A stretch of DNA of 38,002 nt from contig MU271626.1 in NCBI GenBank assembly GCA_021432655.1, forward strand, positions 1 to 38,002. Direction: 5' to 3'. Below, piece by piece: positions 22,082 through 28,600 of the stretch (the first letter of the stretch is position 1; each line of letters starts with the position of its first letter). This stretch comes from Atractiella rhizophila. Lineage: Eukaryota. Position numbers and translations under genes: made by a program. Below the pieces are notes generated by a model that saw nothing but the letters and a program-made list of their open reading frames with translations, was not told the origin of the DNA and made no database searches.

Positions 22082-23366
22082 TCACTCGTCCCCGTCTGCA
22101 GAGGACTTGATGAGAGCAATCTTGGCTTTAACGTTTCTAATACACTCCTCAGTTCATCAGGCATGAAAGATAATAGTTGACGTACTCTGCCCTTTGTTCC
22201 TTGGTGAGTTTGGTCGCTTTGTACTTGCGACTTTCAGCCTTCCACTTTTCGACGTCCTTGGGAGTGGGTTTTGCGAGCGGATCCTCCCGAATCTTTTGGT
22301 GAGCCTCCTTATAAATGTCCTCAATGTCCGCACTGCTGATATCTTCTTCCATATACTTGGCAAATTGCTTCTTGAACCTCTCGTCATCTTCTTCCTCAAG
22401 CGACTCCATGTACTCCGAGACATGCAGACCGTAAATGTAGTTTTTAAGGACTTCTGAGTCGAGCTCTTTACTCTCAGGGTCGTAACCAGGGAATCTGGAA
22501 CAAGTTCAATCAGCATAGTTTCTGATGGACCTGTAGTGACACACCTGTTTTCGGAGTGAGGGATAAGGATTCCACCATCACTTGCCCCTTTCAATGCGCC
22601 GAAAACACGCGATCCAGTGGATGTGCGCTTAAGACCAGTGTCTTTACTGCCACTAAGAAAGGTATGCGACAAATCACAACAGCATCACTCACCAAGATAA
22701 CACTTGAATGGGCGGGGACCATCCTCAATAGGATCAACTAAAGATATGGTTCCATCAGGCTCAGTTTGACCCTGGTACTTATCGGCCAAGCCTAGTTTAG
22801 TCAGGGCCCGGCGGGCGACGAGAAGTCCGGTTGCGTAAGCGGAGGCCCAGTTCGTCAATCCGACTTTAATACCGTAATTTGGTAGTTCGTGAGCGTATGC
22901 AGCTGCTAGGACGAAGTCGCCCTGAAGCTTCGCGTGAACAATCTATCGATAGTTGTCAGCTCTACCCCCAAGAAAGAGTTAACATACCTGACAGATGATA
23001 TCCTTGTTCGTAAAGCGAACAACCAGCCGATACTTTGGTGAGGAATACTTGTTCTTCGCCTGCGCAATTAAGCGTTTACGAGCGTAGTAGTCCGTCTTTC
23101 CCTCTGCCGCCGCCCAAATTATCAGCTGGGAGTTTCATTTAATAACACAGCATAATGTAATTGGTAAGTTCAGATAGGAGCGAAAGACTATTGATGATTG
23201 TGTTCTCCATGACTAGTAGGTCAGATTGAACTATGCATTTTCTTCGACATCATCCCGACAATTTGACCCATAACAAAGCGTTGAAATGCTCACCCCGTCG
23301 TCTCCGGTATTTTACTTGGTACCTCGAGTAGTAAGCGTCATTCTTGACCAACTTGACAAAAGCCAT
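22082..23366 (-). CDS. RPL5: 60S ribosomal protein L5 (uL18), multi-exon, plus a 5'UTR intron ~23378-23454
   Basis: [108 protein letters not shown]. Confidence 0.97.
23167..23257 (-). ncRNA. snR60: Intronic box C/D snoRNA, snR60/SNORD80-like double guide
   Basis: Lies in the unusually long (190-nt) RPL5 intron 23104-23293. Order: C-like box ATGATGT (23253-23247), guide GCATAGTTCA + D' CTGA, then guide AGTCTTTCGCTCCTAT + D box CTGA (23173-23170). The guides are complementary to the conserved LSU rRNA segments UGAACUAUGC and AUAGGGGCGAAAGACU. Confidence 0.88.
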
Positions 23367-23674
23367 CGCGAAATACCTGGTTCCAAGTTAGAGCAGCTGA
23401 ATGGAAGGGAATGTGACATACAATAATGACGACGAAGTATGAATGTAAACCTACCTCAGAAATGAAGGGTTCAGAAGAAGAATAAGGAGAAGTCGGGATG
23501 GTGAATCTCAGATGGGTGACAGAAAAACAGAAGCCACGGACATTTAGGTTCTCGGATCTTTAGAATTCACATGAAATCTGCCTCTTCTGGGGTCGAACAA
23601 ACCACAACCACGGACAAATTAGGGATCCTTATCATCGAAAAACGAAGAGTTGCCTTGTTGTCTAGCAAGCCTTG

Positions 23675-25427
23675 ATGGATGTGATGAAGGTTGGAAACGA
23701 AGAGGATAAGACAGAGAGGAGTCAGAAAGGGGAAAATGAGAAGCAGAAGATAGATAAGAGCAACATTCCACGGTGAGTGTCTGTGTTATACTTGGGGAGA
23801 TGTTCGGCATTGGAGGCTTGATTGAATTCTCACCGTCGGTTGTGGGATAAATTGTGTTTGAGCATGAGTAACGAGAGCACCAAGGCTCCCTGCGGATCCA
23901 TGCACTCTGTCCTAATAGGATTTTCGCATTCTTCTTCTGCCTTCACTGTCATGGTTACACCGTGCACCGAATATTCTTGCCCTTGATTCTGATTTATTTC
24001 CGCAGGCCATATAAATGCAGCTACTGTGACAAAGCCTTCTATCGTCTGGAGCATCAGGTAGGTTCTATGGCCCTCCCTGCGCATTCTGGCTTAGGTCTAT
24101 GTGGACAGTCCAGGCACATCAGGACACATACAGGAGAAAAGGAAAGCACAACAGAGACGGAGATTCACTTCTCCGCTCGTACCACTTCTTTTCTTTGACT
24201 AACACGTTGTTTTTCCAGCCGCACGGTTGCACATTTCCTGGATGCGAGAAACGGTTTTCACGTAGCGACGAGCTCACCAGGTAATTCGCCTTCTGTTGCC
24301 CTCCCTGGTGGGCCTGACAAGAAGGATATAGGCACGCCCGAATACATACCAATCCCAATAGTAAAAGGGGAAAAAAAAAGAGTTTGTTACCCGTGAGTTC
24401 CGCGTCATTGTCCATATTCACCTCTCAGTGTCCACTAGGCCGAACCAGCCGAAACGAATGGCGATGTTCAACTTCCTGTGAGTTCTCTATTCCTTCGCGA
24501 CTCATTCTCAACCACTTCGCCCAGAATGCATGCGATGCCATGACCAGCCTCTCGGTTGCAACAGGATCAGCAGTAGATGTTGACTATCGCCATCAGTCAA
24601 TCCACGCCCTCGCTGCTGCAGCTAGTGACAAGCTACAGGAGATTCACAGGTCGCAAAGTGGTTATTACAACGCGTCGGAACCTCATCCTCACGATCACTT
24701 CTCCCCCGCTAGCATCGGATCGAATTCTAGTTGGCACAATCAGGGTGGACAAAATACGACCTGGAGCTATAGATCGGAGTTCAGCAGATCGGAGTTCACC
24801 GTGTCTTCCCCGAAGTCTCGTCATTCCCACTCACCAAGTCCAGATCAACCTTTAGCAACAGAGTATACACCCTCGACCTCCCCCGTTCTTGGACCATTCA
24901 AGGGCTTGAGCTTGTTGAGCAGCTCTATCTCCAACTCTGGAGGTCCAGGAAGTATCGCTAGCTCGAGCGCGCTCAATTCACCCTACTACTCGCGCGCACC
25001 CTCGCCCAGTTATCACCCTGTCACTCAGTTCCAATTGCCCCCCGCAGTGATAACGTCGGACGCACAGCACGACCTAGTTTTACCTCATCACCATCAGCCT
25101 CACCATCGCTCTCACCCATATGCTACTGCTCACGATAAGCATATCCCCATGCTCCCCTCGCTATTGCGTCGGTCATCTTCGTCTAGCCTCAATCGAATCC
25201 TGCCCCCTCCCGTGCTTCATCCAGATGTAGAAATATCCTCCTCATATTTCCCGCCAAGTACACGCCAATCCCGGTCTGAACCTCCCACTAGAAGCAATAC
25301 GCCTCCCTTGTCATCAACGAGTCATTCAAGTTCCGCAAGCTTGCCCACTTCTGATAGCTTCAAGGCCTCGACAGGTTATCCTCGCAGGCCTGGCGCGCTT
25401 AAACCTCTGACTCCAATCCGAAGATGA
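23675..25427 (+). CDS. creA: C2H2 carbon catabolite repressor CreA/Cre1/Mig1 (multi-exon; needs a GA-AG intron at 24142-24218)
   Basis: IPR|PYKCSYCDKAFYRLEHQ|SRHIRTHTGEK|PHGCTFPGCEKRFSRSDELTR|HARIHTNP, followed by an Ala stretch, TPSTSP, HHRSHPY and LPPP. Confidence 0.92.
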
Positions 25428-25632
25428 TTAACAGAGCAGGTCTTCCATTGTCAATATTTCCTTCTTTTAGATTAGATTAGACTTCGTGAACTCTGTCCTG
25501 TTTCAATTATCCCTTAGACGGCAGCTATAGACACCCTATTGTATTTCCTTGCATTTACGCTTGTTAACATCTATTTAATGATACAATAATGCCACTCCCC
25601 ATTTCTTTGTGCTTCCCTTCTGGACCGGATTC

Positions 25633-28600
25633 TCAGAAGTACAACGAGGCACAAAAGACCACATCCCGCCTAATCGCAAGCTGGGCTCTCTCCATTTTGG
25701 CAAACAATTCTGAATTGCCAACAATCCTTGCGGCATCCTTGATTTCTCGACAGGTCTCGTCCAGCCGTGTGATTGTCCGCACAATTGTACCTTCTTGGAC
25801 ATCGGTGAGGCTTGCGATCTGGTTAAAGGGCTGCTCAACAACTGCCGGATTAGCCCACATCAAGTATGAACGAGACCACTCGCCATTCCTTTGGCCCATT
25901 CGTAGACCACTTCCATCAGCCCAAACCGAAGGATGTTGTCAGGCATCTCATCCCCAAAACTCGTACACACGCTTTGTATTTTCCGCGTCGTGTTGATGAT
26001 TAACTCACGACCCTTGGCAGTTCATGAGCAAAAGGCCATAGCAGAAGCGATTCGTTACCTCCTCCAACTTCTTTGTCAGTATAGGGTCTATCTCTGTCTT
26101 CTCTTGGAAGATAAAGGGCGATAGCAGAGCAACGATTTCCTCCGGTTCAAATGCGCCAAACACATTGTCCAGAATAAGCTCCGTAAGGATGAGCTCGTTA
26201 GCCGAGTTGATCTCGCAGGCGACCCTCCCTTTGAGCAGGACAGTAGAGTTTGAGTCAACAAACTCGAGGGTTCTCAATACGGCAACTTTCTGTTGGTAGT
26301 GCGGCAGCAGCTCGAGGTTCTGTTCCGAAATGCTTAGCTTCAAGCTGTGACACGGTCAATTGAGGTCCATCGCGGCTAACATTCCTATTCACTTAGCAAC
26401 CTTGACCTCCATTTCCTTCTCAGCGTGGAGCTCCCGATACTGCCCTTTGTATTAGGATTTTATCTATAAAATGAAGTGGAAGCTCGTACGAGCTGCTCGA
26501 AATAGGGGTCATCTTGACACGTCAAACAACTTCGCTTTGTGACCAGGTCGTTCCGCAATTTCAACAATTCAAGAAAGTCGAGGGATCGATGTTTCGACCA
26601 TTGCACTTCGCCGGCAAGATCATCGAGCATGGTCGTCTCAAAAGTCTGGAGGAAACCTTCCACAACTTTTGTAAGTTCAGACGATTTTGGACGCTTAAAG
26701 TCGGCTTTGATCTACGGCACATCTTCATCGTTTCGCTTGTCTCCATTTAAAGAAGCAAACCTCAAAATTGAACCGGGTAACGAAAGAGATGCTGGACAGA
26801 GGCACAGAATCCAGTTCATACGTAAGGTTTTCTTTTCCTCGCCATTCAGCGAGAGAAGGCGGCCAAACAGGACCAGTTGGAGAGGATCTTCCTAAATCTA
26901 GCAACGTGAGAATACTCCTCAGTGGCCCGTAAAGGAAATCAACTTCTGTTCATCTCGCTGATGATAAAAACTTGGAAAGTGCGGCGGCCTGGTCCTCCAC
27001 CGGATGACATGATGACTGCCGGAGTGTGAGGAAATCGCTATTTTTGACCACATCAGCTAGGATACCTTTTGAGTTTAACCCACCAAATCGGATAGAATCA
27101 CTACCCTGCCATGATTAAATATCTTGGCACAAAAGGGGTGTGAGAATGCATTCTCCATCATGGTACGGTTTGCGTCCACGATTCGCGCACTCAGATCGTA
27201 GTACTGCCTGATATCTTGCCGATTGGTTGAACTAGTTGAGAGGCGAATTCCATCCAGTTTCAAGAGCGCCTAAATCGGCGCCATCAACAATCAGCCAACG
27301 ATGTGAGGGCTCTTGCCTCTTCCAGCTGCTTTTGGTTCTCAGGTAGAAGCTTCTGCGAAGCGTTTTCCGAAAAACTGCGTTTAATCATCTCCTCGACGCG
27401 CAAAGCTTCCACCCTGAGAAGATTTAACACCATATTGTACGTTAAGCGAAATTGACTCGAAAGCCGTGTTGGAGTACCCAGCAGCATCTTTATCAAACTC
27501 GGGGACTATGCGTGGTAAGAAACTCGATGAAAGTTCAGGGTGAAGGCTAACATCGGGGGTCTCATGTTCGCATACGATTATGACTACTCCAGTAGCGTCG
27601 AGCCCTCGGCGCCCAGCTCGTCCTGCCATTTGAGTGTATTCTCCGGGCAGGAGGTCTCGAAAGTTTTTCCCATCGTGTTTGCGCGTGTTGGCAAAGACAA
27701 CAGAACGGGCAGGCATGTTAACGCCCTAAAGGAAAACGGTGAGCTATTTACATACACCAATATGGTGACCAACCATCGCAAATGTTTCAGTTGCGAAGAG
27801 TATCTTCACAAGACCTCGAGCAAATAAAAGTTCGACCATCTGTCAGCAACAGTTTGAAAAGTGAACTCGAAAGTTAGTTAAGCAGTGATATACTTCTTTT
27901 ACAATCGGGAGAAGTCCACCGTGGTGTACCCCAATACCGCGACCAAGTAGCAGTCGTATGGTCTTGATTTGAGGCAGGTCCTTGTCGCTCCCTTATTTCG
28001 TGTTAAACACCGAAGCGAAGTGGCTCGAACGGCATTACCCTGTAATCTCATGAGACTCCTCTCCAACACCACATGAATCTCGCTCTTTTCAGACGCAGTG
28101 CACAGGTCCGTGTTCGGCATGCTAGCGGCATATTCCTCACAGCGTTTTTTTGAAAATGCAAAAATGACGGCTGGCAAAAGCTGCTTCTTCTTTAATAAAC
28201 CCACCATATGAACCCAGAGCGTTGCATCCTGACGAAATTCCTTCCCTATCCCTGTATGCTTAGCTGGGACAGCAGCTCGACCGCCTCTGCTGTGCGATCC
28301 TCGACCACCTCTTACTGGTGTGGCTGCCCTGGACAATACGGACCCCTCTCGCTCTTTGTCTTGTTTACGACGAGAACCCTCAACAGCATCCCTCCATCTT
28401 GATCCCCTTAAGAATGCCATCGGGATTCAATCAACAACTTACCCCTGACCCAAAAACTCTCCTCTTTGATCAACAATCTTGTGGATCTCACGACCGGCGT
28501 AGAGGTAGTGCTCCAACGGAACTGGTCGTTTAGTGGTACTAATGACGAAGATGTCCTTCTTTTTCGTCCGACTAAATTCATATTGGTTCTTGGTATGCTG

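Follow-up and report, generated by a model that had tools for sequence, protein, structure and literature searches.

The 38,002-nucleotide stretch of Atractiella rhizophila DNA analysed here (contig MU271626.1, positions 1 to 38,002, hereafter referred to as the window) carries at 23675-25427 (+) a gene in which the linker between two zinc fingers is interrupted by 77 nucleotides that begin with GA instead of GT. The question raised by this locus is whether this segment is a genuine intron that is excised in spite of its donor, or whether the A reflects an error or a dead allele. In the case of a genuine intron, it must also be asked whether its removal might serve to control the amount of functional protein.

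The spliced translation of 23675-25427 (+) yields 415 amino acids and is, letter for letter, the deposited protein P0001, which is annotated as 'hypothetical protein BT69DRAFT_747881 [Atractiella rhizophila]'. The gene consists of seven exons and six introns (Table 1), and its product holds two C2H2 zinc fingers spanning residues 33-87 (two stretches matching Pfam zf-C2H2, scoring 39.1 bits where the cutoff is 25.2). Over residues 28-100, with 92-99% coverage, the identity to proteins that bear the names CreA, MIG1 or carbon catabolite repressor is 79-84%. An alignment of 20 CreA-type proteins has revealed that C37, C40, H53, H57, the linker T58-G59-E60-K61-P62, C65, C70, H83 and H87 are invariant (20/20), as are the recognition-helix motifs RLEHQ, RH and FSRSDELTRH, and every invariant finger residue of this alignment is found in P0001. 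The protein shares with CreA, Mig1 and Cre1 the two C2H2 fingers with their TGEKP linker, the RLEHQ.RH and RSDELTRH helices, and a basic NPNSKRGKK tail. In contrast, the C-terminal 300 residues set it apart from these regulators, as a search of a 5.8-billion-protein collection (3828 candidates) returned P0001 itself as the sole match to this part. In the 20-sequence alignment, only a short HALAAAAS..LQEIHR stretch of the C-terminal part matches the LAxxAxxxER of the other proteins. It is therefore by its DNA-binding domain, through the identity of the fingers and their invariant residues, that the gene belongs to the CreA/Mig1 type. Both the assignment to CreA/Mig1 and the near-invariance of the linker had been proposed in the original prediction, and the finger identity and the 20 aligned sequences agree with them. 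Judged from its sequence, the gene at 23675-25427 encodes a predicted CreA/Mig1-type repressor, for which binding to SYGGRG sites and a role in glucose repression are putative.

Table 1. Map of the CreA/Mig1-type gene, in positions of the window, with the basis of each feature.
Feature	Position	Strand	Description and basis
Exon 1, coding part	23675..23772	+	ATG at 23675; MDVMK...NIP and the first 2 bases of R33; model = P0001
Intron 1	23773..24005	+	233 nt, GT..AG; joint skipping 233 nt in X3, X4 and X6
Exon 2	24006..24057	+	First half of finger 1 (RPYKCSYCDKAFYRLEHQ); model, P0001, RNA
Intron 2	24058..24108	+	51 nt, GT..AG, phase 0 after LEHQ; joint in X3 and X4, variant form in X6
Exon 3	24109..24141	+	Remainder of finger 1, then the linker as far as K (SRHIRTHTGEK); model, P0001, RNA
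Intron 3	24142..24218	+	77 nt, GA..AG, donor AAG/GAAAGC; joint in X3, X4 and X6
Branch-site-like TGACTAAC	24196..24203	+	Sequence; contains the TGA that is an in-frame stop upon retention
Pyrimidine-rich tract and acceptor ACGTTGTTTTTCCAG	24204..24218	+	Sequence
Exon 4	24219..24280	+	Finger 2 (PHGCTFPGCEKRFSRSDELT and 2 bases of R); model, P0001, RNA
Intron 4	24281..24331	+	51 nt, GT..AG; joint in X3 and X4
Exon 5	24332..24392	+	HARIHTNPNSKRGKKKSLLP; model, P0001, RNA
Intron 5	24393..24438	+	46 nt, GT..AG; joint in X3 and X4
Exon 6	24439..24477	+	Model, P0001, RNA
Intron 6	24478..24524	+	47 nt, GT..AG; joint in X3 and X4
Exon 7, coding part	24525..25427	+	Stop TGA at 25425-25427; model = P0001
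3' UTR	25428..25601	+	X6 contig ending at 25601, followed by loose AAAAAAAA

At the junction between the two fingers, the K of HTGEK is encoded by AAG at 24139-24141, the following 77 nt (24142-24218) open with GAAAGC and close with TTTTTCCAG, and CCG CAC GGT TGC (PHGC) begins at 24219. The 3' AG is preceded by the pyrimidine tract GTTGTTTTTCCAG (to 24218) and by TGACTAAC, which resembles a branch site of the CTRAY type and whose last A is located 16 nt before that AG. The coordinates and signals given in the original prediction hold when the sequence is checked again, as does its statement that retention of the segment leads into a stop codon. In the retained form, HTGEK is followed by ESTTETEIHFSARTTSFL and the frame closes at the TGA of 24196-24198, upstream of four further introns. 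The product, if translated, would comprise 79 aa with one finger, 61 of them native residues and 18 coded by the intron.

Within 24100-24225, GT dinucleotides appear only at 24101, 24108, 24179, 24206 and 24209, and GC dinucleotides at 24114, 24146, 24175, 24218 and 24221. The AG ends listed are 24146, 24154, 24156, 24162 and 24218, the latter being the only one in the second half of intron 3. The use of GC 24146 or GT 24179 had been dismissed for reasons of phase, and correctly so, because these donors would lengthen the exon by 4 nt and 37 nt, respectively. Around the site, 70 combinations of the GT-AG, GC-AG and AT-AC types were enumerated, 19 of which are in frame and open. None of the 70 yields TGEKP, and rescue of the linker by a canonical donor was rejected on this basis.

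One in-frame donor, GC 24175, was absent from the list of donors considered originally. Together with the acceptor at 24218, it leaves an open frame and adds 11 residues (ESTTETEIHFS) to the linker, so that it could in principle generate a minor isoform. However, no joint using this donor is listed in the contigs of the three RNA runs described below (X3, X4 and X6), its sequence GCTCGT is a poor match to the consensus, and the invariant TGEKP linker would be interrupted by the 11 added residues. The existence of such an isoform is accordingly regarded as very unlikely.

The splicing of the gene was followed in public sequencing data. Four runs of the 20 listed were compared with the window, namely X1 (a DNA contig) and the RNA runs X3, X4 and X6, which come from three different studies or records, X6 being a root metatranscriptome; X2, X5 and X7-X20 were left out. 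A joint reported as 24139->24217, which skips 77 nt with two letters fitting on either side and is equivalent to 24141^24219, was found in the three RNA-bearing runs (3/3), with depths of 7.5 in X3, 194.7 in X4 and 4.44 in X6. This is the very junction whose presence in RNA had been proposed as a check. Run X4 contains a single contig of 5132 nt, with a depth of 194.7, from which all six introns have been removed. The depth of the bin 24129-24209 (26.4 in X4 and 0.6 in X6) is accounted for by the exon portion of the spliced contig alone, and no unspliced contig over intron 3 is found among the X4 or X6 contigs. Contigs lose rare variants, which may include minor unspliced or alternative forms. 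The RNA contigs begin at or upstream of 23616-23622.

Due to the two ambiguous letters, the mRNA product is identical for the cuts AG..CC, GG..CA and GA..AG. The GA..AG cut has been adopted because it is the sole option that would place a 3' AG behind the pyrimidine tract and the branch site. The occurrence of the joint in three studies or records indicates that the excision is exact and reproducible, and the spliced RNA joins HTGEK to PHGC, restoring the TGEKP linker between the fingers. The non-canonical GA-AG intron postulated at TGEK/P is thereby confirmed, as 77 nt are removed exactly and the spliced frame equals P0001. It follows from this exact removal that the gene would make a normal two-finger repressor. 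What did not stand is the claim that gene predictors would mis-model this gene, since the deposited P0001 already reads across the 24141^24219 junction.

A junction of this kind might also be produced by template switching of the reverse transcriptase or by an assembly artefact. Template switching has been named in the literature among the mechanisms behind GA-AG, and both ends of the segment have in common a 2-nt repeat (AG). Nevertheless, three runs that differ in year and library type share the junction, the deep X4 contig contains no other form, and the reading frame across it recovers a protein motif that is invariant. In addition, the segment bears a branch site, a pyrimidine tract and an AG, and a 2-nt repeat would be too short for consistent switching. 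An artefactual origin of the junction is extremely improbable according to these data.

The DNA evidence bears on another explanation, in which the true base at 24143 is a T misread during sequencing or assembly, or in which the window holds a dead null allele. What speaks for it is the rarity of GA donors. Contrary to this, contig 4 of the X1 DNA (23596-25800) shows 13 differences with respect to the window, and the unspliced contig 9 of X3 (24112-24244) shows one (at 24184), but both extend over 24143 and neither of them differs from the window there. As these contigs diverge from the window elsewhere, they represent other alleles, and the agreement of two other alleles at 24143 indicates that the A is not an assembly error, an alternative that the original prediction had left standing. 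Moreover, a null allele is at odds with the exact removal of the 77 nt in three RNA runs and with the open frame of 415 aa. The probability assigned to an error or a dead allele is close to nil. The 8-13 single-base differences per contig indicate that several alleles or strains are present in the public data. An allelic indel is also observed in the 5' leader, where a 4-base insertion (TCGA) after 23647 (+) is present in the X3 and X4 contigs and absent from the X1 DNA contig and the window.

Taken together, intron 3 is very probably a genuine GA-AG intron, excised by the U2-type spliceosome exactly and, within the data available, routinely, so that HTGEK is joined to PHGC, and its splicing is probably constitutive. 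It is the only GA..AG intron among the six of the gene, the other five being all GT-AG. The donor can be viewed as an otherwise consensus AAG/GTAAG in which the T at +2 has changed to A. Positions -2, -1, +1, +3, +4 and +5 of the donor consensus pair with the 5' end of the U1 snRNA, and the donor would still be recognised because its bases at these positions fit that consensus. The 3' signals seem to be the best and most complete among the six introns of the gene, combining a T-rich tract with the TACTAAC-like TGACTAAC at a distance of 16 nt from the AG, and the intron is short and has no in-phase GT competitor within reach. The crippled donor may be tolerated through these remaining signals of the intron. 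The type of spliceosome, the use of TGACTAAC as the branch point, and the compensation by the 3' signals are all predictions read from the DNA letters.

Other routes of excision and origin were also considered. U12-type introns hold an extended donor [AG]TATCCTT and a TCCTTAAC-like branch site. These features are not found in intron 3, and its donor GAAAGCAC and its branch region TTTGACTAAC rule out this class. The splicing mediated by Ire1 in HAC1-type transcripts relies on the loop motif CNG/CNGN; by inspection, the 5' junction lacks a C at -3 and the 3' signals are those of an ordinary spliceosomal intron, so this mechanism was rejected as well. Editing of the A to create a GT donor was discarded, because A-to-I editing reads as G and not as T, and the unspliced contig of X3 shows an A. 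Finally, an origin from a repeat or an introner was also rejected, as comparison of intron 3 with the window by blastn gave only chance matches of 9-13 nt.

Intron 3 is a member of the known rare class of GA-AG introns, and it was already implicit in the public gene model. In the carefully curated 'golden' annotation of the basidiomycete Ganoderma lingzhi, 35 GA-AG introns (0.038% of the introns tabulated) are reported, in accordance with the view of the original prediction that such introns are rare but have been reported. In Fusarium graminearum, GA-AG is among the non-canonical donor-acceptor types listed, and seven genes with non-canonical sites have been confirmed by Sanger sequencing. 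The intron of A. rhizophila has the same splice dinucleotides as these introns and, like them, is a rare case amid overwhelmingly GT-AG introns; Ganoderma is, in addition, also a basidiomycete. The difference lies in that these surveys provide counts and examples, and in their main texts none was seen on CreA or on a zinc-finger linker. No paper remarking on this particular GA-AG intron was found, in a search whose scope left aside the supplements of the splice-site surveys.

The use of GA donors is not restricted to fungi. A GA 5' splice site has reportedly been described in human FGFR1-3 by Brackenridge et al. in 2003. As in the gene studied here, the GA donor of FGFR1-3 reportedly works efficiently at a coding junction that is essential. 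The FGFR site is said, in passages of papers that cite it, to need a canonical splice site 6 nt upstream, whereas exon 3 of the A. rhizophila gene does not contain any GT, the nearest ones being at 24108 and 24179. Human reporter assays place GA among the weaker but usable non-canonical donors, with an activity that depends on the context. In the copepod Eurytemora affinis and in Oikopleura dioica, GA/GG donors are abundant, at 3.2% of supported sites for GA, or ~12% when GG is included. The GA introns of both organisms are constitutive and are required for full-length proteins. The donor context described for them, AG/GA followed by A, is the same as in the AAG/GAAAGC of intron 3. However, GA donors appear there as a genome-wide habit, while here they affect one of the six introns of one gene.

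The value of this case resides in that it is a fungal GA-AG intron verified by RNA at a place where the protein has no freedom, as the gene can work only if the splice within the invariant TGEKP linker is exact. In this basidiomycete, a key regulator is served by a donor whose T at +2 has become A. Intron 3 is also useful for testing gene predictors and for studying to what extent a crippled donor can be offset by strong signals at the branch site and the acceptor. Intron 3 alone does not reveal any new mechanism.

The RNA of the region 24122-24238 is predicted to adopt a fold in which a run of purines that covers the GA donor (24134-24142) pairs with a pyrimidine run at 24187-24195, just before the branch site, with an inner hairpin at about 24154-24178. 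Its minimum free energy is -28.8 kcal/mol, with a z of -2.56, and one of 200 shuffled sequences folds as well. The modelled helix between the donor and the branch region could bring the donor and the branch site together, or it could mask the donor.

It can also be hypothesized that the GA donor makes the removal of intron 3 rate-limiting, in such a way that the carbon source or other signals would set the ratio of spliced to retained RNA, and that retention, leading to NMD or to the 79-aa one-finger product, would tune CreA. A retained form with a premature stop does exist, in that the unspliced contig 24112-24244 was found in one of the three RNA runs (X3), and this stop is followed by the downstream introns mentioned above. 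The intergenic bins of X3 have depths of 0.71 and 0, and since these are near nil, the unspliced contigs of this run correspond to RNA rather than to DNA carry-over. In X3, the depths of the spliced joint and of the unspliced contig are 19.7 vs 5.12 for intron 1, 16.5 vs 5.76 for intron 2, and 7.5 vs 7.22 for intron 3, from which the GA intron could be removed less efficiently than introns 1 and 2, which look more fully spliced, but contig depth cannot rank the parts of a gene and 7.5 vs 7.22 is not a valid measure. The pairing of the donor with the tract ahead of the branch site in the RNA fold would also be compatible with such a control.

Nevertheless, X4 and X6 show the spliced form only, and the deposited annotation uses the intron 3 junction. 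Furthermore, introns 1 and 2 are likewise covered by unspliced contigs in X3, and intron 2 also uses an alternative acceptor there that shifts the frame, which indicates that incomplete processing in this run is not specific to the GA intron. A literature search, in which titles were screened, found no title on CreA with a mechanism of intron retention. In view of the unspliced introns 1 and 2 of X3, and of the limits of contig depth, a regulatory switch at intron 3 is held to be unlikely.

A parallel to the retained form is provided by Trichoderma reesei, where a truncated Cre1 of 96 aa with a partial finger domain binds DNA and acts as an activator. Like the Cre1-96 of strain Rut-C30, the retained-intron product of A. 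rhizophila, if translated, would consist of a short piece of the N-terminus in which the finger domain is incomplete. The difference is that Cre1-96 originates from a genomic mutation and not from splicing, and that the truncated Atractiella product is hypothetical. This parallel adds biological colour to the idea of a switch without supporting it. In the most speculative version, the GA donor would have been kept because the removal of intron 3 is the slow and tunable step of CreA expression in a root endophyte. A considerable fraction of the RNA would then retain the intron in certain conditions and would go to NMD or give a Cre1-96-like fragment whose action differs from that of the repressor, and the helix would help to choose between the outcomes. 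This proposal is likewise unlikely. If a selective and conditional retention of intron 3 were true, carbon catabolite repression would gain a new level of regulation.

The preferred reading, a constitutive GA-AG intron, was also placed in the context of other CreA-type genes. A metagenome scan with P0001 gave 105 pattern matches and no relatives (0) among them. A second metagenome scan, performed with the alignment, gave 80 loci, 30 of which hold a strict CreA-type two-finger signature. These CreA-like loci differ from the A. rhizophila gene in that none of the 30 carries an intron at TGEK/P, although the search was biased against such introns. As RTHTGEKP, which is among the two search patterns, runs across the junction and the ranking favours uninterrupted fingers, the absence from these 30 loci shows only that intron 3 is not universal. 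Contrary to intron 3, an intron at the position of intron 2 (LEHQ/TRH, phase 0) is present in 10 of the 30 loci, with nine GT donors and one GC donor. By its distribution, intron 2 appears to be old and widespread among CreA genes, while intron 3 is seemingly not a general CreA feature. The loci with the LEHQ/TRH intron are L019, L024, L026-L031, L034 and L035, with intron lengths ranging from 44 to 1130 nt, and the GC donor (GCAAGT) is that of L024.

With regard to intron 2 of the A. rhizophila gene itself, the alternative acceptor observed in X3 (TCCAG) is located 5 nt downstream of the main one (24058-24113). It has a depth of 5, against 16.5 for the main joint, and would cause a frameshift within finger 1. 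At the other end of the transcript, the end of the X6 contig and its loose AAAAAAAA place a poly(A) addition site at 25601 (+), 174 nt past the stop codon. A second X6 contig starts at 25601 with adapter letters, and the X4 contig extends past 25800.

Upstream of the gene, an Rfam scan of the window identified at 23161-23262 (-) a C/D-box snoRNA of the family snR60/Z15 (54.4 bits, gathering score 41, full-length model). This snoRNA was the only match of the scan, with no snRNA in the window. It is surrounded by ORF fragments belonging to the adjacent gene on the minus strand, which we take to resemble ribosomal protein L5/uL18, and it is probably hosted by an intron. The X3 and X6 contigs present the same loose end before 23418 (+), which, when read on the opposite strand, corresponds to the start of the minus-strand neighbour (MAFVKLVK..., cf. 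ORF 23250-23387). This observation suggests that the minus-strand gene has an intron in its leader and that it has a short promoter region in common with the CreA gene.
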